IMG/VR virus record: IMGVR_UViG_3300035135_002062 | Source of the DNA: an uncultured virus (IMG/VR IMGVR_UViG_3300035135_002062) | Taxonomy: Duplodnaviria; Heunggongvirae; Uroviricota; Caudoviricetes | Direction: 5' to 3' (one strand) | DNA: 24,024 nt | Shown here: piece after piece, positions 2,685 to 20,268 of the stretch | How the letters are laid out: each line of letters opens with the position of its first letter | Position numbering within the stretch: position 1 is the first letter of the stretch | Position numbers and translations under genes: made by a program | The notes under the pieces: model-generated | The model's input: only the letters and a program-made list of their open reading frames with translations | What the model was told of the DNA's origin: nothing | Databases searched by the model: none

Positions 2685-3259
2685 TCCAATTCAAGATTAT
2701 ATCCCGCAAATTTCTCCATGTAAGATGTTATGGTTGTACCATATCCATCTCTAAACTGTTGTCCTCGTCTGAAGAACTTCTTCACATTACCTTGCCCCCC
2801 AAGATGTGCTGCGGCTAAAATACCCGATTCTGTAATATATACTCCATGTACGACCTCACCGTCATACTTATCGATATATTTTTGGAGTTTCTTTTTATTA
2901 TGTTTCAATAAATCCAACATCGCCTTTTCCTGTAGTTCGGGATGATTTAAAAACTCTTCTCTGGTTAGATCATACCCCAACCCTCTTAGGGTTGCAGGAC
3001 CGAATTGATACTTACCCATATAACCATATGTGTTTACGATATCATATCTATTACCACTTTCTTTATGTCCTATAGATTCTAAAAATGGATTTAATTCATT
3101 AACAACGATTGGTTCCATTGGTCGGGGTACGATCTCACTTAATGGAATTACTTGTTGTCTTTGGTGTGTCATTGCATTTACATCTGATCCGTCATGTACT
3201 TTCGATGATAGTAACATTACAGCAAAAATTGTAAATGATTTAAGTTCGAAATTTTTCAT
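2681..3259 (-). CDS. Lysozyme-like/lytic transglycosylase-family peptidoglycan hydrolase with hydrophobic N-terminus
   Basis: Catalytic-type ES motif (HKESGNRY), GKYQF, AAAHLGG and Y-M-E-K-F; resembles Flavobacteriaceae SLT-like proteins. Confidence 0.75.
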   Translation of the reverse strand: MKNFELKSFTIFAVMLLSSKVHDGSDVNAMTHQRQQVIPLSEIVPRPMEPIVVNELNPFLESIGHKESGNRYDIVNTYGYMGKYQFGPATLRGLGYDLTREEFLNHPELQEKAMLDLLKHNKKKLQKYIDKYDGEVVHGVYITESGILAAAHLGGQGNVKKFFRRGQQFRDGYGTTITSYMEKFAGYNLELD

Positions 3260-3285: not shown

Positions 3286-3600
3286 CTAGCGAGTGTATTC
3301 GTGTCCGAAGAATTCGTAATTTTTAATTACGGATGTGTCATTACCTTCAATCTCTATTGTTGTCTCCTCATCGGCATATATAGCCTCAACAGGACACTCG
3401 GGTAAACAAGCACCACAATCAATACATTCGTCAGGGTTTATGAAAAGTTGTTTGTCGATGAGTTCATCTTTAGTCATGGTAGAAATTTCCGCACCTCTCC
3501 CATTAGGATCGATAGGTCCGTGAATACAATCCACAGGACAAACTTCTACACATACTGTGTCACATACTCCGACACATTTTGACCCAATAATATAACTCAT
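3286..3600 (-). CDS. Dicluster (7Fe/8Fe-type) ferredoxin
   Basis: CVGVCDTVCVEVCPVDCIH and INPDECIDCGACLPECPVEAI motifs. Confidence 0.92.
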   Translation of the reverse strand: MSYIIGSKCVGVCDTVCVEVCPVDCIHGPIDPNGRGAEISTMTKDELIDKQLFINPDECIDCGACLPECPVEAIYADEETTIEIEGNDTSVIKNYEFFGHEYTR

Positions 3601-3772: not shown

Positions 3773-4270
3773 ATGACTATGAAAAAAATCGTTTTAACTA
3801 CCGAACAAATGGATAAAATCAACGAATATGTATCTTCTGAGGGGGAAACAAAAGAATTAAATGAATCCCTTAATAATGAAAGGTATGAGATGAAATGTGA
3901 AATAGATTTTAATTACAGATCCGATTTAATGTACAAAGGTCAAGAGATCGAAGACATTGAAAATTTAGAATATAATGTAAATTATTTAATTGAATCGGAA
4001 CACCGTAGTTGGGGTATCAAGTCTATCGCTGTTTATGATGTCCAAGGACCTGAAGAGTTAGAACTTTATATTCAATACTATCCTGAAGGTTCAGATGATA
4101 TTACCGAAGTTACTGTTCCATTAAAAATTGATTGGGACGCCGCTGATTATGACCAACAAGACCCAAGAGGTATGATTGGTATTGATGAAAACATCGAAAT
4201 AGAGTTAGTGAATGATTCGGACGGTAATATTGTCGCTCAGTCAATCAATATTATTACTTATTCTCTTTAA
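3773..4270 (+). CDS. Acidic hypothetical protein with the shared MKKIVLTTEQ leader (start may be 3779)
   Basis: ORF; TATTTATA at 3757-3764; leader motif shared with five other ORFs. Confidence 0.85.
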   Translation: MTMKKIVLTTEQMDKINEYVSSEGETKELNESLNNERYEMKCEIDFNYRSDLMYKGQEIEDIENLEYNVNYLIESEHRSWGIKSIAVYDVQGPEELELYIQYYPEGSDDITEVTVPLKIDWDAADYDQQDPRGMIGIDENIEIELVNDSDGNIVAQSINIITYSL

Positions 4271-4532
4271 GTTTAACACCTTTTAGTTTCCTATCATGGT
4301 GTTTAAATCTTGCGGGATTTGCCATTACTTCCGCCTTAGAAAATAGTCTTTTCTTTCTTGTTCTTGAGAGTGATCTTCTTCCCTCACCCACTTCATCTTC
4401 TTCATTTTCTTGAGACATAACATATTTGTCTTTTTCAGGTGACGCGTCGTCAACTTTGTGATAGTCTAAATCTTCTACGATGTTATCGACTAATCTCTTT
4501 GCTTGGGTTTCTGTAATGATTACTTTTTTCAT
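4254..4532 (-). CDS. Small hypothetical protein with the shared MKKVIITETQ leader and a basic C-terminus
   Basis: Translationally coupled to the upstream lipoprotein gene (TAATG overlap at 4532). Confidence 0.8.
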   Translation of the reverse strand: MKKVIITETQAKRLVDNIVEDLDYHKVDDASPEKDKYVMSQENEEDEVGEGRRSLSRTRKKRLFSKAEVMANPARFKHHDRKLKGVKLKENK

Positions 4533-6022: not shown

Positions 6023-7213
6023 ATGGTTTATACAATATATGAAGGAAGTAATACTTTGGTTGAGGTTCCTGATGAGGATTCACTTTCAAAATTGATGTAT
6101 TATTACGATCCAAACCCATCAAGATTACCCCCAATAATTTCAAAATATTTTAATAAAGAACATAATTTAGTTATTTATGTGGGTATTCCACCAACAGACA
6201 CGAAGAGTCTGAATGAGTGGTTAAGAAGAACTCAATCGGTACTGATTGAAAATGATATTGACATTTTTATTGTTGGTATTTCCTCAGAGGCGTATCATAT
6301 AGATTTGTGTCATCACATTAATAATTTTTTTAATAAGAATGGTGTAAATTCAGTGGTCATACAAAGTGGGATTGATTACATGAATAGATTTACTAATATT
6401 TTATTTCATCCCGATTTTTTTAGACCTACCACTGACGGACTTCGCGACTTTACTCCTATTAGTAAAAGAAAATATAAATATAATTGTCTTAACAGATTAA
6501 TTCATGGTAGGGAACATAGGTTGATGTTAGTCAATGAATTGTATGATAGGAATCTGATGGATGATGCGGTGATTAGTTGTGGTAGTGGAGAGACCGACCA
6601 TGTATTAGAAAAATTTAAAGAAAGTTTAGATGGGTATCTAAATAATGATCTCAGTTCCTCCTTACCCATAAAACCTGATGACGTAACCGATGTGATTGGA
6701 ACGGGTTCTTACACAAAAAAAAATTATCCTGGGTATGATAGTGTATTTGCTATAGTTGTTGAATCCTCATTTGATACTTTCGAATCCGAAGAGGGTTTTC
6801 AATATAATGATACAGGTTGGACGAGACCATTCTTTACAGAAAAAACATCCAAATCAATATCGTGTCACCAATTACCAATATTTTGTTCTGTGAAAGGATA
6901 CGTACAACATATGAGGGATTTAGGTTTTGATGTATTTGACGATATTATAGATCATAGTTATGACAAAGAAGAGGATCCACCAAAAAGAATCAAAATGATT
7001 GTTGATGAGGTGGAGAGAGTTACTCAAAATCATATAATAGATAAAATAAAAACAAACCCCTCTTTAGAAGAAAGGTTTGTTCAAAATTGTTTACACTTAA
7101 ATTATCTTTATGATAAGTTCTTAAGAAACTTTAAAAATGATTTAAGTCTTTGTTTACTAAACGGTTTAGAAAACACTAAAGTAAAAAAGAATAGTTTTGA
7201 CGATTTACTTTAG
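6023..7213 (+). CDS. Putative glycosyltransferase-like protein (paralog 1)
   Basis: C-terminal IVVES...FFTEKT.K.I...PI...G....R.LGFDVFDDIIDHSYD motif, reminiscent of GT10-like nucleotide-sugar-binding domains; TATTTATC 3 nt before the ATG. Confidence 0.55.
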   Translation: MVYTIYEGSNTLVEVPDEDSLSKLMYYYDPNPSRLPPIISKYFNKEHNLVIYVGIPPTDTKSLNEWLRRTQSVLIENDIDIFIVGISSEAYHIDLCHHINNFFNKNGVNSVVIQSGIDYMNRFTNILFHPDFFRPTTDGLRDFTPISKRKYKYNCLNRLIHGREHRLMLVNELYDRNLMDDAVISCGSGETDHVLEKFKESLDGYLNNDLSSSLPIKPDDVTDVIGTGSYTKKNYPGYDSVFAIVVESSFDTFESEEGFQYNDTGWTRPFFTEKTSKSISCHQLPIFCSVKGYVQHMRDLGFDVFDDIIDHSYDKEEDPPKRIKMIVDEVERVTQNHIIDKIKTNPSLEERFVQNCLHLNYLYDKFLRNFKNDLSLCLLNGLENTKVKKNSFDDLL

Positions 7214-7596
7214 TTAGTCCCTTGGGTACTTAATGCTATCGTAGACTCCCCATTTAATCTTAATCGTCTTCTTTCGTCAATGATCTCCTGTCGTGTAAAT
7301 TTCTGTTTCCCACTTTTGATCCAAACGAGTTGGTCGCCGTTGAATTGTCCCACACTGAGAACTTGACCATTACTAAACAAAGTCCATTTACCTTCACGGT
7401 CTAATTTTCCATCTTCACCGATTGAGTAGTATCCTTTTTGTGTTATTTGACCATCAACATCAGTAAAAGTAACTTTGTAATAATCATCATAGATAAGTTC
7501 AAACTCTTTTGTAGACTTCTTTACCTCTGAGTTGAACTCTTGACCATAAATTGTGGTCGTCAGAAGTATAGCCATTACTAAAAATAAATTTTTCAT
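7210..7596 (-). CDS. Secreted small protein with MORN-variant-like beta repeats
   Basis: Signal peptide MKNLFLVMAILLTTTIYG-Q; QKGYY..DGKLDREGKWTLFSNGQVLSVGQF; TATTTATT on the minus strand at 7638-7645. Confidence 0.7.
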   Translation of the reverse strand: MKNLFLVMAILLTTTIYGQEFNSEVKKSTKEFELIYDDYYKVTFTDVDGQITQKGYYSIGEDGKLDREGKWTLFSNGQVLSVGQFNGDQLVWIKSGKQKFTRQEIIDERRRLRLNGESTIALSTQGTN

Positions 7597-7701
7597 GTTT
7601 CTTGTATTTTAAGTCTGTTTATTGTGTCCCGTTACTTAATAAATAGTCAATGTTAAGTAATTGTTAAGTCAATATTACGAAAAAAATACAAAAAAAACAA
7701 G

Positions 7702-8838
7702 TTATTTTGATAATTGTGAGAATAGTTTATTGTAGTGGTCGTTCCATTTGTCGGCACTTAACTCTTTCAAAGTTGAGATATTTTGATTCATCCTAACCCT
7801 AATTGTTTGTTCGTTTTTAATTATGTTATCTACAGATTCTTTATTGATTAACCTCTCTAACTCATCAACAATCATTTTTATTCTTAAGTCTTGGTTTTCC
7901 TCAGTATCATAACTATGATCAACAAAATCATCAAATACATCGAACCCTAAACTTCTAAGATGACCGACATATCCTTTGGTCGATAGGAAAATTGGTATCT
8001 GCCTACAATTTATAAATTTCATAGTTTTTTCAGTTATGAACCATGTGTCCCACCCCTCGTTAAAATATACATTAGGGTACTCTCGACTAATTCTGTTCTC
8101 ACCTGAAGATTCAATTACAACATTAATTAAACAATTTTTACTTGGATTATTCAAGTGATTCCTACTATTTGAATACACTATTCCGACGCGGCCAATGTCC
8201 GCTATTATAGGTAACGACCGAAAGAAATCTTTATATTTTTCATAAACTTGTTTCGGGAACTTCTCGGGGTCACCATACGAATCTAAAACCTCTCTTGTTT
8301 CACCACTACCACAACTAACCACACCATAATCCAACAACCCTCTTTTGTAAATCTCTAAGGTTATCATCATCCTTTGTTGTCGTTTCATTAACATTCGGGA
8401 TAAACACCCAAATAAAGGACCCCTCTTTTCAAATGGTAAATCAGTGTATGGTTCACACTGTAAGAAACCAGGATGTGGAACCATATAATCAAGATCATAT
8501 TTAGGATCTGTAGAACCATGTATAAAGATTACGTTGGTTTTGACTCTATCATGTAATGATATGATATCTTTTTTGTGGTACGACTCTGTAGAGTTATCAA
8601 ATACTATAGTATCGTATTGATCATATTTAGTATTTAATTCTTCTATGATCGAATCCACTTCGTCTTCTTGGGGGGTTCCAAATACCCACAGTATTTTTTT
8701 ATTGGTGTCTTCTATGAATTTAGATATTTCACTATCAAAAAAATCATTCCACATTACTGCCCTGAAATGATCTAAATTTTCAATCTTAGTGATATTCTCT
8801 AAGGAAACATCGGGCGTGTGATCAGTTATATAAATCAT
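7702..8838 (-). CDS. Putative glycosyltransferase-like protein (paralog 2)
   Basis: Shares SCGSGET and [FI]TEKT...LGFDVFDD..DHSYD.EE....RIKMIVDE.ER with 6023-7213; last gene of the 2OG-DegT-radical SAM operon. Confidence 0.55.
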   Translation of the reverse strand: MIYITDHTPDVSLENITKIENLDHFRAVMWNDFFDSEISKFIEDTNKKILWVFGTPQEDEVDSIIEELNTKYDQYDTIVFDNSTESYHKKDIISLHDRVKTNVIFIHGSTDPKYDLDYMVPHPGFLQCEPYTDLPFEKRGPLFGCLSRMLMKRQQRMMITLEIYKRGLLDYGVVSCGSGETREVLDSYGDPEKFPKQVYEKYKDFFRSLPIIADIGRVGIVYSNSRNHLNNPSKNCLINVVIESSGENRISREYPNVYFNEGWDTWFITEKTMKFINCRQIPIFLSTKGYVGHLRSLGFDVFDDFVDHSYDTEENQDLRIKMIVDELERLINKESVDNIIKNEQTIRVRMNQNISTLKELSADKWNDHYNKLFSQLSK

Positions 8839-10655
8839 AAATTTTCAATTCTGTATTTACCCCACCCCTGTCTTCTTTTGAAGTAAAACATTCTCATGTA
8901 ATCATCTTCATTATCGTACTCCTCTCTAATAATAAACTCGTAATTCTTTTTGATATGCCTTAGATCTTGTTTCTTATAACAGTACTCGAATACGTTCTTT
9001 GTAAGGGTTACATTTTTAGTATCCACACCCATCTCAGTAATGAATTCTTTTTGAGCTACTATCACATCCGCATCATCATCAAACTTTAAAAAGAATTGTA
9101 GACAAAATTTATGTATCTCTTTTTGATTTTTATGGAACTCTTGTTGACTGTCCCACAATAGAGTATGTCCTGAATAATCCACAGTTTTCTCCCCACTTAG
9201 ATATCTTCTAAATCTATCCTTTGTTTTTATAAATTCATTACCAACAACACCATCATCATTTAATATATCCTCTAATAGTTTCGTATAAAAATCATAATAA
9301 GAAATATTTTTCTTCCTTCTTAGGTATATCGAATATATTTGAGTCCAACCATAGATATGTAAATTGGTTATCAACCATGAGAACATCCAAGAGTCGATCA
9401 AATCATCGAACGGCATGTACTTAGTCCCTCTTACTATCTCTGCCACCTCTCCAACAAAATCCTCATTAGATGTATAGTAGTTTTCAAGAAAGACGGTGTC
9501 AAAACCATGTTCCTCTCTTTGTTGATTTAGTTGTGCGTTTTCCAACATCTGAGTCAACCACGATTCGATTGAATTGTGTTGTCCCGCTTCGATTAAATCA
9601 CAGATACCCACTTTCCATGTATCGATAGTTTCGTGGGGTAAACCTAAAATAAGTTCTGTGTACGAAGGTATTTGTTGTTCATTACATAAATCTAATATTT
9701 CATGAAACTTATTCAACTTCATATTAGACCTTTCTATTGACTTTAGGGTCTCTTCGTTCATACTTTGTAGGGAAAGTGAGAATCCTCTATTGAATCCATT
9801 TTCTATGAACTTCTTTACCATATTAATTACACTTGGGTTTAAGTTCTTATACCATGTGGCATCTACTGTTTCAGGATACCCGTATTGATTCTGCACATCA
9901 ATAAGTTTCTCAGTGATTAACATGTCCCTATCTTTAAAACATCCGAAGTTCGCATCGGCTAAACTCACGTAACCAATCTTATTTTTACCCATCCATTCTA
10001 AATCAGAATAAACACGATCTATCATAAACTTTTTTAATTTAGAATATGTTAGGGATCCCCAATCACAAAAGGTACATTTAAATGGACACCCTCTGTTTGT
10101 TTCCAAAACAGTATTCCATTGTAATTCGGGATTACTTTTGATGATGTCATCAAACAAACCTAAAGTATAAGGTGAGGGAAAGGTTAGTTCATCTAACCTA
10201 TCAAACTTATATATCTTTTGGACTTCACCATTTTTATAATCTTCTAATATTTTTAAGAAATTTCTTTCACCTTCACCTAGAGAAACTGTATCTATGTAAG
10301 GGTGTTCCTCAAAAAAATTATTTTCTTCGGGGAACTTTGTTACTTGTGGTCCACCAAAAACAATTAAACAATCGGAGAAGTTTTCTTTAATTGATTGTGC
10401 AATTTTTTTGTTGTATTCATAATTCCACACATAAGATGAAAAACAAAATATATTTGGTGGGTCAATTCTATTTAATAATTCGTCAGGTGTTTCTCGTCTA
10501 AATAATAGTTCTGAGAGGTTGAAGGTTTCGTTAACCCAATCAAACTGTTGGACATATGACCATATTGTTCCCACTGAATATGGTAACCAATATCCTTTAA
10601 ATTTACCACTACCTGTTGAATAGTTTACTTGGGAAAGGTAGATGTTAAATTTCAT
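8835..10655 (-). CDS. Cobalamin (B12)-binding radical SAM enzyme (class B methyltransferase-like)
   Basis: N-terminal B12-binding region (FSSYVWN...IVFGGPQ...GEGE), ETNRGCPFKCTFCDW CxxxCxxC motif, LADANFG and ELILGLPHET. Confidence 0.9.
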   Translation of the reverse strand: MKFNIYLSQVNYSTGSGKFKGYWLPYSVGTIWSYVQQFDWVNETFNLSELLFRRETPDELLNRIDPPNIFCFSSYVWNYEYNKKIAQSIKENFSDCLIVFGGPQVTKFPEENNFFEEHPYIDTVSLGEGERNFLKILEDYKNGEVQKIYKFDRLDELTFPSPYTLGLFDDIIKSNPELQWNTVLETNRGCPFKCTFCDWGSLTYSKLKKFMIDRVYSDLEWMGKNKIGYVSLADANFGCFKDRDMLITEKLIDVQNQYGYPETVDATWYKNLNPSVINMVKKFIENGFNRGFSLSLQSMNEETLKSIERSNMKLNKFHEILDLCNEQQIPSYTELILGLPHETIDTWKVGICDLIEAGQHNSIESWLTQMLENAQLNQQREEHGFDTVFLENYYTSNEDFVGEVAEIVRGTKYMPFDDLIDSWMFSWLITNLHIYGWTQIYSIYLRRKKNISYYDFYTKLLEDILNDDGVVGNEFIKTKDRFRRYLSGEKTVDYSGHTLLWDSQQEFHKNQKEIHKFCLQFFLKFDDDADVIVAQKEFITEMGVDTKNVTLTKNVFEYCYKKQDLRHIKKNYEFIIREEYDNEDDYMRMFYFKRRQGWGKYRIENL

Positions 10656-11302
10656 ATATAATCTTTATAAATCTTTTGGTTTCTTAGGTCACCATAAGTA
10701 TCTGATGATCCACACGATTCATTAAAATCTTTTATTCTTTCTGAGTTGAATATCTCTAAACCTCTTTTTGCGGATTCAGGACTCATATACATGTGCCACC
10801 CAACACACTCAAACTCGTCATCATTATACATTCGATCTTTGTGTCTACCATCATATATCATTGGTCTTAACCACTCATTGAAAACTTTGTTGTTTGTAAG
10901 TATCATACCACCTTGACCTATGTTTAGGATTTTCTTAAAATGAAATGAAAGAATCATTATCTTATCCTCATAACCATCACCCATATTTCTATATAGTGCA
11001 GTTGCGGCATCGATGATGCCTGTCTCACCTAATTCGTATAAACCATCCCATTCTATATCAACAAACTCTGGTTTGTTACCACTTAAAATAATTTGGTTTG
11101 GTACTGACACGTAGGTTTTTGCGGGTATTCTAATTCTATGATTTTTTATTCCTAAGTAATGTAGACACAGTCTTATTGCGTTTGAATTTGAGTCACACGC
11201 AATTCCGTATTTATATCCTGAGTATTCGGCGACTTCATTCTCAAAGTGAGTTACCCAATCCCAAGGATCATTTATTTCGTATTTATCATTTATTTCTTTC
11301 AT
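10652..11302 (-). CDS. DegT/DnrJ/EryC1/StrS-family PLP aminotransferase, short form (about 216 aa; likely start ATG 11302)
   Basis: FENEVAEY.G.KYGIACDSNSNA, P..TYVSV, IIDAA and SFHFKKILNIGQGGMILT (PLP lysine region). Confidence 0.85.
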   Translation of the reverse strand: MKEINDKYEINDPWDWVTHFENEVAEYSGYKYGIACDSNSNAIRLCLHYLGIKNHRIRIPAKTYVSVPNQIILSGNKPEFVDIEWDGLYELGETGIIDAATALYRNMGDGYEDKIMILSFHFKKILNIGQGGMILTNNKVFNEWLRPMIYDGRHKDRMYNDDEFECVGWHMYMSPESAKRGLEIFNSERIKDFNESCGSSDTYGDLRNQKIYKDYI

Positions 11303-12053
11303 AACCAAAACCTTCACCAACCATTCTACCAACCCAATCATCCTCAACTATTTTATGATGTCCATATTCATTCGTTGAGTAGATACTTTTATGTGGTGGA
11401 TCATTAGGATCATATTCACTTGAACTTATATAGTAGAAAAATCTAATACAACACCTTTGTACATCTTTAGGACAATTCACTCTACTAACAGAGTGTACAG
11501 GACCTTTAGGTACATTTTCTGAAATTATAAATCTGTTAAACCTTGGTGAGAGCGATTCTATAATTTCGGCATCAGGATTTACCTCAGGATTATCAGTCCA
11601 AGTTACATTATGTCCCCCCCACTCATCCTTCCAATCAGGTGTTATGTATAAAATTGATGTTAACTTCCTGTGGAGTCTAATTCTGTCGTTCCAATTAAAA
11701 TCATAGTGTGGTGCCAACTCAGATCCATCATGTATAATTGAAAATCCCGCACCAACTAAGTGTGGATCAGGTAAAAGTCCTGATATTCCTGTAAGTTGTT
11801 CTAAATCAAAGATAAATTCACCACTATACATCAAATCGTAGGTAAGTTGATGTGCTGTTGGACAAGTAATTAGATCATTAAATTCCTCCATCCTTGACCC
11901 CGCCCTTGTGAAGACCGACCAACCACCTTTAGGTGCTGACATACACTCCTCATAGAGTTTTAAACAGGTTTCATCATCAATAAAACCATCAATATGTGTT
12001 CTTGGATAACCTTGGATTCTTTTTTTGTCCCAATCTGACTTACGATGTAACAT
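11286..12053 (-). CDS. 2OG-Fe(II) oxygenase (prolyl-hydroxylase-like)
   Basis: LLPDPHLVGAG, HxD (HYDFN), YITPDWKDEWGG, PRFNR, distal His (VHSV) and Arg. Confidence 0.85.
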   Translation of the reverse strand: MLHRKSDWDKKRIQGYPRTHIDGFIDDETCLKLYEECMSAPKGGWSVFTRAGSRMEEFNDLITCPTAHQLTYDLMYSGEFIFDLEQLTGISGLLPDPHLVGAGFSIIHDGSELAPHYDFNWNDRIRLHRKLTSILYITPDWKDEWGGHNVTWTDNPEVNPDAEIIESLSPRFNRFIISENVPKGPVHSVSRVNCPKDVQRCCIRFFYYISSSEYDPNDPPHKSIYSTNEYGHHKIVEDDWVGRMVGEGFGYERNK

Positions 12054-12071
12054 ATTTCTATAGTTTCTTTA

Positions 12072-12103
12072 AAAATATAGGGAAAAATATCCGTAAAATC
12101 AAA
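12072..12103 (-). promoter_or_regulatory. Variant Bacteroidota-type promoter for the 2OG/DegT/radical SAM/GT operon
   Basis: Minus strand: TTTG (12100-12103), 20-nt spacer, TATATTTT (12072-12079). Confidence 0.4.
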
Positions 12104-12108
12104 AAATT

Positions 12109-12330
12109 TTACGTTTTAGATATCTCTATCGTGATTTTTCCGTCTTTTTCAGTTATTTTAAAGTCTGATGGTGAAAGATTCTCATAATACTCCAAATAGT
12201 ACTCAAGACGGTCAAAATCGTCTTTTTTACCCTTTTTTTGGTCTTTTTTGGACTTTTTTTCCTTCTTTTTGGTCTTTTTCTTGTCTTCTACAAGAATTCT
12301 TAAGTGTTCTTCAGTAATACGAATCTTCAT
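12109..12330 (-). CDS. Small Lys-rich protein with the shared MKIRITEEHL leader
   Basis: TATTTATA on the minus strand at 12335-12342, 4 nt before the ATG. Confidence 0.8.
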   Translation of the reverse strand: MKIRITEEHLRILVEDKKKTKKKEKKSKKDQKKGKKDDFDRLEYYLEYYENLSPSDFKITEKDGKITIEISKT

Positions 12331-12402
12331 ATGTTATAAATATCACCCTTTTTACTCTTTTTAGGGGGTGGACTTTGTGGTTTATTTTTCTTACATTATA
12401 GT

Positions 12403-13131
12403 GTGGAGTATAAAAATAACGTTGATGCCATGATAAGTGACGGTATTGAAAGAATCGCGGTAACTGGTGGTGATGGATTACTTGCAAAACAACTAAAAAG
12501 TGACTCTGAGGGGTTAATAATGACTAACTTTTCCAAAAATGAGTGTACTGTAGGTAGAGATGATAGATTTAAGACTTTAGACCCCTTTAAAACCATAGTT
12601 CATACCGCAGCGATGATAAATGTCAACGATGTTAATAATAATAGGGACGAATTTATACTCACCAATATAGTGGGAACCTCGAATTTGGCTAGATATTGTA
12701 TAAAATACAACAAAAGGTTAGTCTACATATCAACAGATTACGTATATGATGGTAATTTGGGGGGTAATCACAGTGAAAATGACCCAATAAACCCATATAA
12801 CCTATATGCGTGGTCGAAATTAGGTGGTGAAAGTGCAGTAAGGTTTGTACCCAACCATGTAATCATTAGAACAAGTTTCGGTAAAAGTGAATTTCCTTAT
12901 AAAAAGGGTCATGACAACCTATATACGTCTAAAGACTACGTTGATGTGATAAGTCCAATGATTATCAAAGTACTCAAGAATAAAAATTTTGTTGGTGTAG
13001 TGAATATTGGTACTCATAAGAAGTCAATATATGAATACGCACTATCAAGAAACAGTAATGTTGAGAGGTCAAGCTTAGAGACCATAAAAGATTTTTCTTT
13101 AAACACAGAGATGTATGAAAAAGTTTTTTAA
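12403..13131 (+). CDS. rmlD: RmlD-like dTDP-4-dehydrorhamnose reductase (extended SDR)
   Basis: VTGGDGLLA, HTAA, YISTDYVYDG, PYNLYAWSKLGGE (YxxxK) and IIRTS. Confidence 0.75.
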   Translation: MEYKNNVDAMISDGIERIAVTGGDGLLAKQLKSDSEGLIMTNFSKNECTVGRDDRFKTLDPFKTIVHTAAMINVNDVNNNRDEFILTNIVGTSNLARYCIKYNKRLVYISTDYVYDGNLGGNHSENDPINPYNLYAWSKLGGESAVRFVPNHVIIRTSFGKSEFPYKKGHDNLYTSKDYVDVISPMIIKVLKNKNFVGVVNIGTHKKSIYEYALSRNSNVERSSLETIKDFSLNTEMYEKVF

Positions 13132-13225
13132 AAAATTAGATTTAACTGATATCTTTTTGATTACCGCATTGTTTTTCTACAGTGCATTTATGATCATAAA
13201 CGTTATTAAGTTTTTCACGTTGTGA
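13115..13225 (+). CDS. 36-aa single-pass membrane peptide (absent from the ORF track)
   Basis: MKKFFKKLDLTDIFLITALFFYSAFMIINVIKFFTL; fills the gap between rmlD and rmlB and overlaps the rmlB start as GTGA. Confidence 0.55.
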   Translation: MKKFFKKLDLTDIFLITALFFYSAFMIINVIKFFTL

Positions 13226-14136
13226 GAATTGTTGTAACAGGTGGTGCGGGATTTATAGGATCCTCCTTTGTTCGATTATTAGATAAGTACAACTCAAAAC
13301 ATGGTGGTTTTGATATTATAGTAGTAGATAAACTTACTTACGCATCAAACATCGAACGTTTACCTGAAACAGTTACTTTAATCGAAAAAGATATTTGTGA
13401 TATCACAAAAGAAGATATAGGTGATACACAGTACATTGTAAATTTCGCTGCGGAATCACACGTAGACAACTCCATAGAAGATGGGACCCCATTTATAAAA
13501 ACAAATGTAATGGGAACCTTCAACTTGTTAGAGGTCGCGAGGTCAATGGATAACTTTGAGAAATTCGTTCAGATATCTACAGACGAAGTTTATGGTGATT
13601 TACACGATTATAATAACTCTAAAAAATTATCAGTAGAGGGTGATAGATGTGTACCATCTTCATATTACTCCGCCTCGAAATCTGCCGCAGATGATATTGT
13701 AATTTCCGCAGGGAGAACTTTCGGGTTACCATTTCTTATAACACGTACATGTAACAATTATGGTAGACACCAACACAGAGAAAAGTTTCTACCTAAAGTT
13801 ATGGATTGTATTGAAAGTGACAAACCTGTACCTGTGTATGGTGATGGTGGTCAAATACGAGAGTGGATTTGGGTGGAAGACAATGTACAAGTGATTTTTG
13901 ATTTAATGATATCGGAGATCGGAATATACAATATTGGTACAGGAGATAGGTGTACCAACAAAGAGATTCTCGTTAACATCGGGAAAATAATAAACCGACC
14001 TGTCAAATATGAATATGTACAAGATAGGTTGGGTCACGATAGAAGGTATGGATTGGATTGTTCAAGATTAGAGAGTGTAACAACTTTTGAACCCACCATA
14101 AACCTGATTGAGTATTTAACTTCAGAATTACTATGA
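13222..14136 (+). CDS. rmlB: dTDP-glucose 4,6-dehydratase
   Basis: VTGGAGFIGS, DKLTYA, NFAAESHVDNSI, ISTDEVYG, YSASK, TCNNYG..QH.EKF.P and DRLGHDRRY. Confidence 0.93.
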   Translation: MRIVVTGGAGFIGSSFVRLLDKYNSKHGGFDIIVVDKLTYASNIERLPETVTLIEKDICDITKEDIGDTQYIVNFAAESHVDNSIEDGTPFIKTNVMGTFNLLEVARSMDNFEKFVQISTDEVYGDLHDYNNSKKLSVEGDRCVPSSYYSASKSAADDIVISAGRTFGLPFLITRTCNNYGRHQHREKFLPKVMDCIESDKPVPVYGDGGQIREWIWVEDNVQVIFDLMISEIGIYNIGTGDRCTNKEILVNIGKIINRPVKYEYVQDRLGHDRRYGLDCSRLESVTTFEPTINLIEYLTSELL

Positions 14137-14966
14137 TAGGAATTATAGGACAAGGATTTGTAGGAAATGCTGTGAAACAAAAATTTGGAAAATACTTTGA
14201 TGTTCGCACGTATGATAAACTTGAACACTTATGTGACTCTACTTTAGAGGAAGTGGTAACGGGTTCTCTTTATATTTTTATTTGTTTACCCACACCAATG
14301 AATCCTGATAGGACGTGTAACACAAGTATCATAGAAGATACTTTATCGGCAATAGATCTAATTTGTGAAAATAATAATGAGAAAAAAACGATCATATTAA
14401 AATCGACGGTCATATGTGGAACAACAGAAAGATTGAATGAAAAGTATGATTATTTAAACATTGTATTTAATCCTGAATTTTTAACTGAGAGAAATGCAGT
14501 AGAAGATTATAATAACCAAGATAGAATTATATTAGGTGGACCAAGACCTTACACTACAGGATTAAAACAGATTTTTTCAAAAGTGTTTCCAAAGGCACAT
14601 ATTATAAAAACAGATTCAACACATGCAGAGATGGTTAAGTACCTAACCAATACTTTCCTTTCAGTTAAAGTAAGTTTTGCTAATGAAATATACCAACTAT
14701 GTAGTCAATTAGGTATTGATTATGATAAGGTTGTTGAGTACGCAACTTTAGATAGTAGACTTGGTGATTCACATTGGACCGTACCAGGTCCTGATGGTGA
14801 CTTTGGTTTTGGTGGGCACTGTTTCCCTAAAGACCTCGCCGCATTAATTAGTTTATCATTCAAACTACACACAACCAACAATGTTTTATGTGCCACAGAA
14901 TCAACTAATGATGATGTTAGATCGTTACGTGATTGGGAATTAATGAAGGGTAGAGCGATTACATAA
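14133..14966 (+). CDS. UDP-glucose/GDP-mannose dehydrogenase family protein lacking the C-terminal domain
   Basis: GIIGQGFVG, ICLPTP, KSTV..GTT, NPEFL, AEMVKY..NTFL..KVSFANE and GFGGHCFPKD. Confidence 0.88.
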   Translation: MIGIIGQGFVGNAVKQKFGKYFDVRTYDKLEHLCDSTLEEVVTGSLYIFICLPTPMNPDRTCNTSIIEDTLSAIDLICENNNEKKTIILKSTVICGTTERLNEKYDYLNIVFNPEFLTERNAVEDYNNQDRIILGGPRPYTTGLKQIFSKVFPKAHIIKTDSTHAEMVKYLTNTFLSVKVSFANEIYQLCSQLGIDYDKVVEYATLDSRLGDSHWTVPGPDGDFGFGGHCFPKDLAALISLSFKLHTTNNVLCATESTNDDVRSLRDWELMKGRAIT

Positions 14967-15574
14967 TGAGTAGAGTATGGGTATATGGTTGTAGTTTTAC
15001 TCAGTTTGGTAGTAGTATAACTCACAAGTGGGATACAGAAAATTCTTTTCCCGATTTAATTTCAAAAGAATTAGGTGTTGAGGTTTTTAATCGTGGTTTC
15101 GCGGGTGCAACTAATTTTGAAATAATAAGAAACTTTTTAGATGACTATGATCAAATACAACCCGATGATACTGTAATCATACATTGGACTCACGTAGACA
15201 GGAAATGGACATCTAAACGTAGTTACTTTGTCACCAATGTAGATCATGAGGACAAAGAAACTCGTGATCTAACAAGATTGTATTTTGGGGAGTTCTATGA
15301 AGATAGTGAGGTATTATTAAATCTATTTACTTATCACCAAACAGTAAAGTCATTATTCAAGGGAAAATATTTATTTGGGTTTGCGGATTGGACAAGTGTC
15401 TTAAAAGGTAAGTATTATGATATTATGTCACAGGAAGATGGTTATGTCTCTGAAGAAGGTGATAGTATGACTGAGTATTGTAAATCCTTTGGTCCTCAAA
15501 TGGCCTTTAAATGTTTACACCCTAACCATAAGGGACACGAGTATCTCTCAAAAAAGTTCTTGGATAAAATGTAA
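14966..15574 (+). CDS. SGNH/GDSL-like hydrolase or acyltransferase
   Basis: VYGCSFT (block I), NRGFAGATN (block II) and HPNHKGH (block V). Confidence 0.7.
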   Translation: MSRVWVYGCSFTQFGSSITHKWDTENSFPDLISKELGVEVFNRGFAGATNFEIIRNFLDDYDQIQPDDTVIIHWTHVDRKWTSKRSYFVTNVDHEDKETRDLTRLYFGEFYEDSEVLLNLFTYHQTVKSLFKGKYLFGFADWTSVLKGKYYDIMSQEDGYVSEEGDSMTEYCKSFGPQMAFKCLHPNHKGHEYLSKKFLDKM

Positions 15575-16282: not shown

Positions 16283-16603
16283 CTACATTCTCGATTTTAT
16301 AATCTCAATGGAACGTTGAATTTCTTCTGCGTCCCCTGCGATATCATCGAGTATTTCTTGTGTTGATCTTTCCACAGAAATGTCTCCGACACTTCCGTCG
16401 TCATTCATTCCCTCGAATTCCTTGGTTGGATCTTCAGGACTTCTTAACATTTGTTCGATCTTATTAGAGTCGGATGTGAAGTTTTGTAGGTATTCTCTTT
16501 TTTCTTCATCGTCCATTTGACTCCATGTTTGTTGTTGTTCGACTATAGGTTTCTTTTCAAATAGTCTACTATATTGATCTTCTGATATTACTAATTTCTT
16601 CAT
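16283..16603 (-). CDS. Acidic hypothetical protein with the shared MKKLVISEDQ leader
   Basis: Coupled operon with the two upstream genes. Confidence 0.85.
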   Translation of the reverse strand: MKKLVISEDQYSRLFEKKPIVEQQQTWSQMDDEEKREYLQNFTSDSNKIEQMLRSPEDPTKEFEGMNDDGSVGDISVERSTQEILDDIAGDAEEIQRSIEIIKSRM

Positions 16604-16953
16604 TATAAAAATCTTTTAAAGTCCTTTAATATTTCTTCTTTATTCTCATTGATCCATTTTGGTTCCATTGCTCCTTGCATTAAACCTCCTGGTTGAGTTG
16701 CGACAGAATCGTTAGGGTTCCAATCTTCTTTGGTTTCCTTTTCTTTGCCACAATCACACTTTTCACACTCAGGTCCACATTTACATTCATCTTTCTTACA
16801 ACCACATCCACATTTTTCTTCGTTAAGATGTTCTTCGACTTCTTGTTTAAGTTTTTCTTCATCCTTAAACACAGTCTTAGCTTGTTCCAAGATTGGTTTT
16901 TGTGTATCTCTTACGAGTCTATCTAATTGATCTTCTGATAAAACTATTCTCAT
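16603..16953 (-). CDS. Hypothetical protein with the shared MRIVLSEDQ leader and a metallothionein-like Cys cluster
   Basis: CGCGCKKDECKCGPECEKCDC (8 Cys in 21 aa). Confidence 0.8.
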   Translation of the reverse strand: MRIVLSEDQLDRLVRDTQKPILEQAKTVFKDEEKLKQEVEEHLNEEKCGCGCKKDECKCGPECEKCDCGKEKETKEDWNPNDSVATQPGGLMQGAMEPKWINENKEEILKDFKRFL

Positions 16954-18041
16954 CGTATTAGTCTTTTAAATCTTTTCTGACTCTCGTTTAACGTATTTGT
17001 TTCCGCCAATTTAAGTTCAGGTTTAGGTATATCAAGAGGTTTTACCCCTTTAGGTTTAAGTGCGATTACCTTTTCGATTTGTGGTCTGTTCGCGCCCAAC
17101 AAAAATTCTTTGATTCCCGCAAGAGTTTTCTTACCTAATTTACCGTCGATAGAACCAACGATTTCACCAAGACCCGCATCGTGTAACATCTTTTGGATTT
17201 CAGATACATCAGATCCTGTCATTAGTCTTGTTCTCACAACAGGTTTTTCTTCTGCACTTCCACCATCTTGTTGTGGTGTTTCAGGATTTTCACCACCCGC
17301 TTCAGGTTTTGGATCTTCTGATGGTTTTGGTTCTGGTTCCGCTCCACCAGGATTTAGGTTAAGTCCCGCCTCTTCAACATCACCATACTCAGCGAGTTCA
17401 CTTAGGCTAAGTTCAGAGATGGCCGCATATTGTGCTCCGACACATTTTGTTTTCTCAGGGAAAGCCACGTACTTGTTCTGAGAATCATCGAAGTTATATA
17501 ATGTACCATCAGGTTTGACACCGTAGTATCCACCTTGTGCTTGAAAATATAGGATACCTCTTCCACCATCTTCTTTATACCATTTGTAACCAGGTGTGTC
17601 TTTAAGACAAGGGAAAGATGCCAATATCTTTTCTTCGACAGGATGTGCTTCTGATTCTTTATCATGTCCCGCTGCGATGGATGCGTCGTACGCCTTTCTA
17701 ATAGGTCTAAGTACATATACATTCCAAGTGTTTTCTCTATCGATATCACCGTCCAACCAACTCATTAAACCTTCACCTGTGTTGTTTTTAAATGCGGAGA
17801 ATACCGCTTTTACATCGTGTAGGTTATTACATTTATTGAACGCCGCCGCGATTGCGTCTTCGTCAGTCCCCATTCCTTTAATTGCATCATACAAAGCGTC
17901 GGAAATACTATTAAGTTCAGATGAACTCAAAGTACCTTTACCTGACACCAATTTTGTATTTACAAGGGATTGTATTTGATTGTATGAACTTTCGTTTAAA
18001 AGTTTTTTATACTGTGATTCAGTTAATCTAATTTTCTTCAT
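16950..18041 (-). CDS. Annexin-repeat plus peptidoglycan-binding-domain protein with the shared MKKIRLTESQ leader (start 18041)
   Basis: ISDALYDAIKGMGTDEDAI...FSAFKNNTGEGLMSWLDGD (annexin consensus) and GSDVSEIQKML...IDGKLGKKTLAGIKEF (PG_binding_1-like); TATTTATA on the minus strand at 18060-18067. Confidence 0.8.
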   Translation of the reverse strand: MKKIRLTESQYKKLLNESSYNQIQSLVNTKLVSGKGTLSSSELNSISDALYDAIKGMGTDEDAIAAAFNKCNNLHDVKAVFSAFKNNTGEGLMSWLDGDIDRENTWNVYVLRPIRKAYDASIAAGHDKESEAHPVEEKILASFPCLKDTPGYKWYKEDGGRGILYFQAQGGYYGVKPDGTLYNFDDSQNKYVAFPEKTKCVGAQYAAISELSLSELAEYGDVEEAGLNLNPGGAEPEPKPSEDPKPEAGGENPETPQQDGGSAEEKPVVRTRLMTGSDVSEIQKMLHDAGLGEIVGSIDGKLGKKTLAGIKEFLLGANRPQIEKVIALKPKGVKPLDIPKPELKLAETNTLNESQKRFKRLIR

Positions 18042-18161
18042 TTTTACGTGGTTTTTATATATAAATATCAAGTTTTTTATAATAGTGTATAATAAGTCTC
18101 AAAAATCCCACGAAGTGGTCATCCGACGTTTCCCCGAAGGGTCACGAGAGGTCAGAGATCG

Positions 18162-18857
18162 TTAGATTCTATTAAATTTATACAATTCTGTAAACAGACC
18201 TGACATATAGTAGTTATCGGGGTGTCTATTTGTATTCCAACCACCTGAGAAGGTTACACCTTGCGAGGGGTTAATTGTATTAAGGGTAAGAAAATGTATG
18301 GTTCCTTCCACATCAAAGTCATAGGTCTGATATTCATTGTTCCCAAAGTTCATAACCACACATAGATTATAATTAGAGGTATAGTTTTTTAGAGCTTCGT
18401 CTATCTTTCTACCTCTTTGTTTCATATCTTCCATTATGGTTAATTTATCTGAACCGATCTCATAGTGATAATGGAGGTTTTCGGGGTGTTTTGTAAGTTC
18501 GGGGGAAAACATAACAATAAAGAGTTTTCTCAAAGGAGAATTACACATATCGTTAAAACGATTAATACATCTCTTATAATATTCATAGTGATCATCTCTA
18601 CGTGGATCTTTATGAAAGAAGAAATCCTCATGATATAGAGTATGTCCACAATTATGTTCATAGAAGTCATTTTTAACATCCACATAATAGGACTTATCCA
18701 AAAACTTCTCAAACCGATTCTCGAGACAATCGGATATAATGTTTTCATCAGAGAAAGTCCAATCAAATGGATAGGATACATTCTTGACTTTTATACGTTG
18801 CATGAATCTTGCGGTGTGACAAACAGTTCCGAGGGAACAAACATGATGATATTCCAT
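18162..18857 (-). CDS. DUF1796 putative papain-like cysteine peptidase
   Basis: SLGTVC...SYPFDW...FFFH...YY.RCINRF motifs. Confidence 0.75.
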   Translation of the reverse strand: MEYHHVCSLGTVCHTARFMQRIKVKNVSYPFDWTFSDENIISDCLENRFEKFLDKSYYVDVKNDFYEHNCGHTLYHEDFFFHKDPRRDDHYEYYKRCINRFNDMCNSPLRKLFIVMFSPELTKHPENLHYHYEIGSDKLTIMEDMKQRGRKIDEALKNYTSNYNLCVVMNFGNNEYQTYDFDVEGTIHFLTLNTINPSQGVTFSGGWNTNRHPDNYYMSGLFTELYKFNRI

Positions 18858-19872: not shown

Positions 19873-20268
19873 ATGTTTTCATTACTCCTTATAGTCAAAG
19901 ACCATAAGTTCCTTTTCTTTAAAAGACATAAGGAAGATGTTACTTATGCATCTAATTGGGGTTTACCTGGCGGATCTATTGAGAAGGGTGAAACTCCCGT
20001 TGAAGGTCTTATCAGAGAACTAAAAGAAGAACTTGGAATGGTTATTACAGAGTTTACTTTACTTAAGAAGTATAATAGAAATGGAAAAACTATTAATGTT
20101 TACTATAAAGATTCCCCCGATTTTGATGAAAGTCAGATACGTCTGAATTTCGAACATACAGACTTCCGTTATTTTACTTACCACGAAATCTTAAATGGTA
20201 AAGAATTTATCCCTGGTACTATAGAAATGATTAACGACTATATTAAGTCCTACTATAGATTATCCTAA
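19873..20268 (+). CDS. NUDIX hydrolase
   Basis: Nudix box GGSIEKGETPVEGLIRELKEELG; TATTTATA at 19861-19868. Confidence 0.92.
   Translation: MFSLLLIVKDHKFLFFKRHKEDVTYASNWGLPGGSIEKGETPVEGLIRELKEELGMVITEFTLLKKYNRNGKTINVYYKDSPDFDESQIRLNFEHTDFRYFTYHEILNGKEFIPGTIEMINDYIKSYYRLS

Follow-up and report, generated by a model that had tools for sequence, protein, structure and literature searches.

Record IMGVR_UViG_3300035135_002062 of IMG/VR is a 24,024-nucleotide stretch of DNA from an uncultured virus (Duplodnaviria; Heunggongvirae; Uroviricota; Caudoviricetes), the whole of which is referred to here as the window. On its minus strand, a gene at 16950..18041 (stop codon included) encodes a protein of 363 residues, P0001, in which a single annexin repeat is joined to a peptidoglycan (PG)-binding-like domain. 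From the N terminus, the protein is made up of a 17-residue basic leader, the annexin repeat, an α/β domain containing a pair of cysteines, a disordered acidic linker, a PG_binding_1-like domain, and a 10-residue basic tail. The gene, this domain architecture, and its phage origin are near certain. The reading of its function that we favor, to which we assign a probability of about 0.45, draws on the sequence and on analogy with phage T4: P0001 would be packaged into the phage head, trimmed there by the prohead protease, and ejected at infection, after which it would tie murein to the anionic membrane in a Ca2+-dependent manner. Annexin repeats, PG_binding_1 domains, and T4-style capsid tags are each of a kind already known; what is new is their combination in one phage protein.

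The annexin repeat and the domains that follow it

The only open reading frame (ORF) at the locus spans 16950..18071 on the minus strand when counted from an upstream TTG. We set the length of P0001 at 363 residues because all 38 aligned homologues share its MKK start, at the ATG at 18041. Relatives form 39 clusters at E ≤ 0.001 in a large protein collection, none of them with a functional name, and the contigs bearing them reach 224 kb. The alignment used throughout (A1) unites P0001 with 38 of the 39 homologous clusters, P0040 (32% query coverage) being left out. Neither P0001 (by tblastn) nor the window as a whole (by megablast) found a match in 50,697 phage records. A pattern-based scan of 185,579 bacterial and archaeal species genomes, which may miss some, returned no full-length relative; it gave 110 pattern matches, 3 of which were confirmed by tblastn, all confined to the PG-binding part (residues 256-329). 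The 1-kb bin that holds the gene has the highest G+C content in the window (0.409, against 0.287-0.363 elsewhere). An AlphaFold model of P0001 built from A1 has a mean predicted local distance difference test (pLDDT) score of 69, with 77-96 per 10-residue block over residues 21-200 and values below 50 in the linker and at both termini.

Annexins are regarded as essentially eukaryotic proteins. The repeat found here takes up about residues 36-123 (17673..17924, minus strand, for residues of about 40-123) and is recognized by Pfam, by a profile search of the PDB, and in the model. Positions 17739-17906 within it encode residues 46-101, reading ISDALYDAIKGMGTDEDAIAAAF...LMSWLDGDID. When P0001 was compared with all PDB chains by phmmer, 58 of the 60 among the matches listed were annexins or annexin fusions, with annexin VI the best at E = 3.5e-8; the two non-annexins were designed β-trefoils at E of about 0.02. 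With the A1 family profile, all 60 among the matches listed were annexins or annexin fusions, and the best E value was 1.5e-25, which is a sum over the repeats of annexin VI, the single best repeat scoring 24.2 bits. Pfam family PF00191 (Annexin) is matched at E ≤ 0.01 by 27 of the 39 family members, the best at 3.4e-7.

The model tells the same story at the level of fold. Five helices are predicted (residues 40-55, 61-69, 74-88, 92-99, and 103-123), with pLDDT of 88-96, and a VIA-align search of 48,161 chains placed annexins, giardins, and one annexin fusion in all of the top eight positions (Z 9.7-7.3), aligned to model residues of about 36-118. The closest were α-11 giardin (2ii2; Z 9.7, root mean square deviation (rmsd) 2.2 Å, 74 residues), annexin VI (Z 9.4), and the isolated first repeat of annexin I (1bo9), all 73 residues of which could be superimposed (Z 9.3, rmsd 1.9 Å). 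Taken alone, such values do not decide the matter for a helical unit; alongside the sequence profile they make a convincing case that the predicted fold is that of an annexin repeat.

The most conserved positions of the repeat are those expected to bind Ca2+. A GxGTD loop motif (G56-M-G58-T59-D60; 17862..17876, minus strand) is followed by a distal acidic residue, D99 (17745..17747, minus strand), which aligns with the Glu that serves as a Ca2+ ligand in the D/E turn of annexins; together these elements are the definition of the type II Ca2+ motif (PMC3894181). Across the 39 aligned sequences G58, T59, and D99 are invariant and G56 and D60 at least 90% conserved, and the repeat columns that reach invariance or at least 90% also include Y51, D52, and A53. 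The family stretch ..aikGlGTDeda.. falls onto the annexin MKGLGTDED loop and D99 onto the Glu of ..KSEISGD in annexin VI. By its sequence, the repeat has a complete predicted type II Ca2+ site. The initial annotation, made from the letters of the window alone, had proposed a single annexin repeat with a GxGT loop and a distal acidic residue, and the conservation in A1, the PDB profile, and the Z values of 9.3-9.7 all bear it out.

P0001 matches annexins over one repeat, not over the four of the annexin core, and its remainder consists of other folds; we therefore call it an annexin-repeat protein and not a canonical annexin. It has in common with annexins and giardins the five-helix repeat fold, the GxGTD loop, and the distal acid. 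It differs from the known annexins in being encoded by a phage, in its fusion to a PG-binding-like domain, and in a conserved W..RP.R motif that lengthens its last helix. The survey of Kodavali et al. (2014) reported about thirty annexins in bacteria, the annexin-bearing bacteria being mostly Bacteroidetes, and none in viruses (PMC3894181). Some of these consist, as P0001 does, of a single repeat joined to other domains, and some carry toxin, protease, or transmembrane (TM) segments; relatives of P0001 likewise have predicted membrane segments, whereas a PG-binding domain is not among the partners named in the part of the survey consulted (PMC3894181). A literature search, with subscription-only papers and supplements outside its reach, found no paper on phage or viral annexins.

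Behind the repeat lies a second conserved unit, the middle α/β domain (about residues 126-205; 17427..17666, minus strand), which was recognized from A1 and the model and consists of a helix and five strands. Its invariant residues are H126, C145, Y152, F166, D178, G179, and C200, and its pLDDT is 77-93 in the full model and 74.8 in a separate model (A2) made from eight cut sequences. A search of the ESM Atlas with residues 104-212 gave no usable match, and the A2 model found no convincing fold match, the best being staphostatin at Z 4.4 with VIA-align and an E value of 0.024 against BFVD; this lack does not show that the fold is new. The two invariant cysteines, C145 and C200, would suit a disulfide in an oxidizing compartment. 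A low-complexity linker rich in Pro, Glu, and Gly follows (about residues 213-272; 17226..17378, minus strand, for residues of about 222-272). It has pLDDT of 25-50 and differs in length and composition among the homologues.

The PG_binding_1-like helical domain (residues 273-326; 17064..17225, minus strand) was recognized with Pfam and VIA-align. Positions 17100-17225 encode residues 273-314, reading GSDVSEIQKML...IDGKLGKKTLAGIKEF; both this stretch and the one quoted above for the repeat translate exactly as the initial annotation had given them. It had also placed a PG_binding_1-like domain after a Pro/Glu linker, and this holds for the family, 33 of 39 members of which match PF01471 at E ≤ 0.01 (best 8.6e-7), and one of which, the close homologue P0041, exceeds the cut-off of that family with 25.3 bits. 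The model has helices at residues 276-295, 304-315, and 319-326, with pLDDT of only 56-77. The C-terminal helices (270-319) superimpose on the PG-binding region of SltB3 (5anz) with Z 5.3 over 48 residues and on an L,D-transpeptidase (4lpq) with Z 5.0, rmsd 2.2 Å, and 26% identity over 50 residues; this is a range of Z in which chance arrangements also occur, and it lends the PG_binding_1 fold modest support. Comparison with PHROGs gave weak matches of the C-terminal part to endolysin families (phrog_1493, 8.8e-4; phrog_2649, 3.9e-3). The predicted helical bundle and the DGxxGxxT core resemble those of the PG_binding_1 modules of endolysins, lytic transglycosylases, and L,D-transpeptidases. 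The known modules sit with murein enzymes, whereas that of P0001 is joined to a predicted membrane-binding module instead. The protein has no hydrophobic segment (maximal 19-residue Kyte-Doolittle mean of 0.62) and therefore neither a Sec signal nor a TM helix.

Phage lineage, leader, and tail

The surroundings of the gene are those of a phage. Twenty-two of the 33 window ORFs of at least 60 residues are colinear with a second IMG/VR contig, G001 (78,043 bp; CheckV completeness 25%), at 38-94% amino acid identity, and G001 contains a head module in T4 order: a large terminase, a gp20-type portal, an S77 protease, and a 454-residue, extremely acidic scaffold-like protein. The prohead protease is a Peptidase_S77 member (PF03420, 82.1 bits; phrog_207, 1.5e-44). 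The portal matches 2547 phage records, best among them Microcystis phage Mel-JY01 (43%) and then Flavobacterium phage immuto (38%), and in immuto the annotated head genes stand in the same order as in G001. Because the window is colinear with a contig whose head module is T4-type, we assign it, by sequence, to the T4 superfamily and regard its source as a large marine phage that is uncultured; such a head presumably goes with a contractile tail. The claim of the initial annotation that the gene is phage-encoded is thereby upheld. An origin from a giant eukaryotic virus is ruled out by the T4-type portal, terminase, and protease of the colinear contig.

The host is probably a member of the Bacteroidota, an assignment that is weakly supported: Shine-Dalgarno-like cores precede only 2 of 29 window gene starts, the signal peptides of some window proteins resemble, by eye, those of Bacteroidota, and a Flavobacterium phage is among the nearest cultured relatives. 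The same phage lineage encodes an amidase with PG_binding_1, a Phage_lysozyme2 protein with PG_binding_1, and an M23 peptidase.

The link to the head comes from the two ends of P0001. Its N-terminal leader, a proposed capsid-targeting propeptide, comprises residues 1-17 (MKKIRLTESQYKKLLNE; 17991..18041, minus strand) and divides after two [LI]xE motifs, LTE (6-8) and LNE (15-17), into MKKIRLTE and SQYKKLLNE, with S next. M1, K2, K3, E8, S9, Q10, and E17 are invariant in 39 sequences, and the isoelectric point (pI) of the leader is 9.8, against 4.9 for the predicted mature part (residues 18-353). The pattern M-K-K-[ILV]-x-[ILV]-[TS]-E-x-Q... begins five genes of the window (3779-4270, plus strand; 4254-4532, 16283-16603, 16603-16953, and 16950-18041, minus strand) and eight of G001, with no spurious frames, so that the shared leader described in the initial annotation is real. 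The cargoes that follow it are unrelated to each other and range from 71 to 376 residues; the layout with two [LI]xE motifs is kept in the other leader proteins while the remaining residues drift. Within the first 30 residues of 140 related proteins, 117 have at least one [LI]xE and 92 at least two.

The C terminus carries a further proposed propeptide, LNE (residues 351-353) followed by the basic tail SQKRFKRLIR (residues 354-363; 16953..16991, minus strand, for both). L351, E353, and F358 are at least 90% conserved in A1, and five of the ten tail residues are basic. Among the 842 frames of at least 40 residues in the window and G001, five have F[KNR][KR][FLI][LI] at the C terminus, and four of these five are the P0001 gene and its downstream neighbor in both phages. 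The [LI]xE sites of P0001 cluster at the two ends, and the folded domains are spared.

These features can be set against the head proteins of T4. There, internal proteins carry capsid targeting sequence (CTS) propeptides of 10-19 residues, and cleavage by gp21 frees the mature protein (PMC9026906). The protease cuts C-terminal to Glu, and Alt loses a piece from each end, at ITE-6 and LTE-619 (PMC5694885). In IPI, IPII, IPIII, and Alt, the short N-terminal propeptide precedes unrelated proteins and ends in [LI]xE, as does the leader of P0001, and LNE-353 with the basic tail is a possible counterpart of the second, C-terminal cut in Alt. T4 has the gp21 protease and an acidic core; the lineage of P0001 encodes a gp21-family protease and an acidic scaffold. 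The internal-protein genes of T4 are found in variable regions, and P0001-type genes are likewise. There are differences, too: the leader appears unrelated in sequence to the T4 CTS, no T4 CTS sequence having been compared, and the T4 cargo serves host take-over in the cytoplasm, whereas the domains of P0001 point to the cell envelope. At the level of sequence motifs, P0001 fits the T4 scheme of targeting and trimming point for point. The motif logic, the protease and scaffold of the lineage, and the parallel with Alt lead us to regard capsid targeting and end-trimming of P0001 as having somewhat better than an even chance of being correct, by analogy with T4. The two [LI]xE motifs of the leader, the protease and scaffold on G001, and the LNE site before the basic tail thus lend indirect support to the virion loading suggested in the initial annotation.

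A murein metallopeptidase of the M23 family on G001 (L010:10464-11060, plus strand; PF01551, 94.6 bits) has the shared leader (MNIKLTESQLINIIEN) and would, judged by that leader, be a second candidate for an envelope-acting head cargo; it has no counterpart within the window. A complex prediction for the N-terminal residues 1-45 with the 454-residue scaffold-like protein of G001 scored 0.00 against a mark of 0.32, without controls, and is evidence neither way.

Proposed mode of action and its alternatives

If the scheme of T4 applies, the basic leader, perhaps together with the basic tail, would dock the P0001 precursor on the acidic scaffold core of the prohead in the manner of a CTS. The S77 (gp21-type) protease may then cut after LTE-8, LNE-17, or both, and also after LNE-353, as the motifs suggest, which would leave an acidic mature protein (residues 18-353, pI 4.9) inside the head. 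By analogy with the T4 internal proteins and Alt, this product would exit the capsid with the DNA at infection. From the known functions of its domains, the PG-binding-like domain could then hold murein in the Ca2+-rich periplasm of a marine host while the Ca2+-loaded repeat grips anionic phospholipid head groups. The flexible linker would span the gap, and we propose that wall and membrane would therefore be tethered, stabilized, or resealed at the site of entry. The initial annotation had likewise suggested a bridge between wall and membrane, during DNA entry or lysis. We propose tentatively, and at odds clearly short of even, that the periplasm is where the mature protein works and that it ties murein there to the anionic membrane through a Ca2+-loaded repeat as DNA enters; this is suggested by the PG-binding and membrane-inserting modules with which the repeat is repeatedly paired, by the leader shared with the M23 peptidase, by the cysteine pair of the middle domain, and by the Ca2+ content of sea water, which is about 10 mM. 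The idea resembles that of the podovirus ejection proteins, T7 gp14, gp15, and gp16 (with a transglycosylase) and P22 gp7, gp20, and gp16, which are stored in the capsid, leave it first, and act in the periplasm on murein and membrane, where they build or protect the path of the DNA. The parallel is drawn at the level of this idea, and P0001 differs from these proteins in having no enzyme domain and in belonging to a phage with a T4-type head. A weak match to the Pfam family P22_gp7 (E 0.0031) occurs in 1 of 117 distant single-repeat relatives.

A number of points weigh against this reading of P0001 or limit what supports it. We know of no T4-type phage that ejects a periplasm-acting protein from its head. 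The 24-kb window has no head genes, the protease and the scaffold being found only on its relative G001. The density of [LI]xE, a point in favor of trimming, is 6.8 times higher in the first 30 residues of the 140 related proteins than in the rest, a figure that is descriptive and not a P value because these sequences are related to each other, and its weight is tempered by the shortness of the motif. A degenerate 30-nucleotide DNA pattern for the leader core has no site in Flavobacterium phage immuto, and the pattern recovers only two of the eight leader genes of G001. A putative, promoter-like TATTTAT motif (18061..18067, minus strand) stands 20-26 nucleotides upstream of the P0001 start, and the same motif is found 10-28 nucleotides upstream of many genes, including those for the terminase, portal, protease, scaffold, and P0001 homologue of G001; it does not time expression, because its 23 occurrences in the window (17.6 expected) are not above chance and it also precedes nonstructural genes. 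The T4 late-promoter motif TATAAATA has 11 sites in the window against 4.9 expected, and the site near the P0001 gene is on the opposite strand. Matches to both Pfam families are real, as seen above, and those of P0001 alone lie under the curated cut-offs (PF00191, E 8e-5, residues 49-99, 23.1 bits against 25; PF01471, E 2.1e-4, residues 275-313, 21.8 bits against 23). The structural comparison returned annexins at Z 9.3-9.7 with VIA-align; Foldseek with the full model found nothing in the PDB at E ≤ 0.001, its ranks 1-46, from E 0.015, being all annexins or annexin fusions. Finally, the internal proteins of T4 are basic and act in the cytoplasm (PMC9026906), and the mature part of P0001 is acidic.

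Alternatively, and in our judgment with a low probability, P0001 with these same domains could be a soluble late lysis accessory that is never packaged, reaches the periplasm only after the holin has acted, and binds murein and membrane there, aiding endolysins or disruption of the envelope; the shared leader would then serve otherwise, for example in partner assembly or regulated proteolytic activation. PG_binding_1 is typical of endolysins, to which the best PHROG matches of the C-terminal part also belong, the phage encodes several murein enzymes, and P0001 has no export signal. Yet the protein has no catalytic domain, its gene is not beside annexin-free endolysin candidates, and such a role accounts neither for the leader, which small proteins without lysis features also have, nor for the conservation of three [LI]xE sites. 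It is less probable again that P0001 is packaged and ejected and then acts on the cytoplasmic face, where Ca2+ leaking in through the wound made at entry would drive the repeat to bind the inner leaflet, so that the site is resealed or marked, much as in eukaryotic membrane repair, and the PG_binding_1-like helices would bind something besides mature murein. The conservation of the Ca2+ site above all other features would suit this, as would the weakness of the PG_binding_1 assignment of P0001 (Pfam; Z 5.0-5.3), but the repeat occurs together with PG-binding domains in each of two separate families, the two invariant cysteines of the middle domain would suggest an oxidizing compartment, and the leader on the M23 murein peptidase of G001 points to a periplasmic cargo.

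There are two further explanations. In one, which we find improbable, P0001 is only a prohead-core or assembly factor, whose repeat tethers the nascent core to the inner membrane and which is degraded or expelled at maturation without a part in the next infection. T4 heads do assemble on the inner membrane, and gp21 fragments core proteins (PMC5694885), and the leader and tail of P0001 resemble core-docking tags. The position of the [LI]xE sites at the ends, with the folded domains spared, nevertheless argues for trimming rather than destruction; moreover, the Ca2+ level of the cytoplasm does not suffice for a classical annexin site, and a PG-binding domain is useless in the cytoplasm. In the other, the leader marks precursors of radical-SAM-modified peptides resembling the ribosomally synthesized and post-translationally modified peptides (RiPPs). 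Shared leaders on divergent small proteins are a RiPP hallmark, a radical SAM/B12 gene lies at 8835-10655, and one leader protein, at 16603-16953, is rich in cysteine. However, the radical SAM gene belongs to a block (6023-12053) without counterpart in G001, which has eight leader genes all the same, and the leader proteins include folded proteins of 200-376 residues and the M23 enzyme; we disfavor this idea as very improbable and reject it on these two grounds.

Neighboring genes, related proteins, and implications

Besides the conserved middle domain and the C-terminal tag, a three-gene leader cassette adds to what the initial annotation had described. The P0001 gene is overlapped by the gene directly downstream (16603..16953, minus strand), which encodes a 116-residue, Cys-rich leader protein with the tail ...INE-NKEEILKDFKRFL, and the third gene (16283..16603, minus strand) encodes a 106-residue acidic leader protein ending ...IIKSRM. 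This order is kept in all six loci whose downstream sequence is long enough to show it (the window, L001, L014, L016, L017, and L018); at a seventh, L015, the contig is cut within the second gene. Across loci, the Cys-rich protein has about 116-123 residues and a FKR[FL][LI] tail, and the acidic protein has about 107 residues and ends ..IKSRM. Neither small protein has a Pfam match. The two probably act together with the annexin-repeat protein. Between its leader and tail, the 116-residue protein contains a dense CxC/CxxC run (..CGCGCKKDECKCGPECEKCDCG..) and looks metal-binding, in the manner of a metallothionein.

Upstream of P0001, a DUF1796 papain-like protein is encoded at 18162-18857 (minus strand), and the interval between the two genes (18100-18150, minus strand) contains a G+C-rich segment whose apparent inverted repeats end in a T run (..gacccttcgggg..gggattttt) and which may be a terminator. 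A sugar-modification block extends over 6023-15574 and includes a B12-binding radical SAM enzyme, a DegT-type aminotransferase, a 2OG-Fe(II) oxygenase, an RmlD-like reductase, an NAD epimerase/dehydratase, a UDP-glucose/GDP-mannose dehydrogenase, and a GDSL hydrolase; it is the 6023-12053 part of this block that G001 lacks. Two proteins of 378-396 residues encoded there (6023-7213, plus strand, and 7702-8838, minus strand) have no Pfam match and look like paralogues by eye, sharing C-terminal sequence such as ..GFDVFDD.(I/V)DHSYD..E....RIKMIVDE(V/L)ER. The window also encodes a 2x[4Fe-4S] ferredoxin (3286-3600, minus strand), an exported protein with a weak transglycosylase-like match (2681-3259, minus strand; 19.5 bits against a cut-off of 27), and a NUDIX hydrolase (19873-20268, plus strand).

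Single annexin repeats extend well beyond the P0001 family. A second viral family from IMG/VR (L002-L006; about 341 residues, for example L005:9560-10585, plus strand) begins with a leader that differs from that of P0001 but again has LxE (MVQPKYSPEEAL...MMEYDSSKTLDEN). A long hydrophobic stretch rich in Gly and Ala, resembling a glycine zipper, comes next, then the annexin repeat, and a Gly linker connects this to a PG-binding-like end with DGKFGPKT. Its repeat is 35% identical to that of P0001 over 93 residues (E 6e-15) and matches PDB annexins at E 1.2e-5; the family has no Pfam match at E ≤ 0.01. Neighbors of these genes include an HNH endonuclease, a ClpP-like protease, and a carbamoyltransferase. 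A word search restricted to the annexin part of P0001 (residues 36-125) returned the P0001 family alone, and an exhaustive HMMER scan of 1.84 billion representatives gave 233 clusters at E ≤ 0.001, of which 32 reached E ≤ 1e-10 and 9 reached E ≤ 1e-30.

Repeats were counted in 146 newly listed proteins among the best 150 of these 233 clusters, entries without a label of origin that may be viral or cellular. With a local hidden Markov model of the repeat, one stretch was found in 117 of them; a single protein has two, 7 have none, and the 21 with three or more show the classical multi-repeat annexin layout. The initial annotation had called single-repeat forms uncommon in bacteria; among the uncultured relatives they are common, at 117 of 146 clusters. 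These 117 proteins have a median length of 288 residues, and 96 keep G.GT; when they are aligned, the only columns at least 90% conserved are G58, T59, and D99. Pfam recognizes Annexin in 54, PG_binding_1 in 11, PG_binding_3 in 3, glycine-zipper families in 6 and 4, and DUF6861 in 12, and many have an LxE-bearing leader or an N-terminal TM helix. Several of the single-repeat clusters are on viral contigs, and the one-repeat annexin is a common form among uncultured proteins that are probably viral. One class (P0119-P0185), of about 135-155 residues and from uncultured sources, consists of an N-terminal TM helix and one annexin repeat and ends ..L.SKGINYQF. Foldseek with the P0001 model found nothing in BFVD at E ≤ 0.001. 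Two proteins of uncultured Caudovirales in BFVD, A0A6J5NYQ7 (E 5.1e-3) and A0A6J5RF64 (E 4.3e-2; 94 columns, rmsd 3.5 Å), both with a Foldseek probability of 1.00, may be further phage annexin-repeat proteins.

For the evolution of annexins, more than 100 minimal one-repeat forms are now at hand for study, many of them with membrane or murein modules. For phage biology, the findings point to Ca2+-dependent lipid binding as a tool of infection in sea water. They would extend the logic of the T4 capsid targeting sequence and of gp21 cutting to distant marine relatives, and they suggest that head cargo includes envelope-acting proteins, namely P0001 and the leader-bearing M23 murein peptidase. 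In the engineering of such phages, the leader could be used to tag proteins for packaging, a purpose for which the T4 CTS has been used. A broader proposal, which we regard as doubtful, is that single annexin repeats are a widespread and unrecognized envelope-targeting module of marine T4-superfamily phages, stored in the capsid by means of cleavable leaders, released in a periplasm rich in Ca2+, and combined with PG-binding or glycine-zipper modules to tether or reseal the membrane at the entry wound. If it is true, phages would have their own counterpart of annexin-mediated membrane repair, and they would be both a reservoir and a vehicle of annexins, which could account for the patchiness with which these proteins occur among bacteria.

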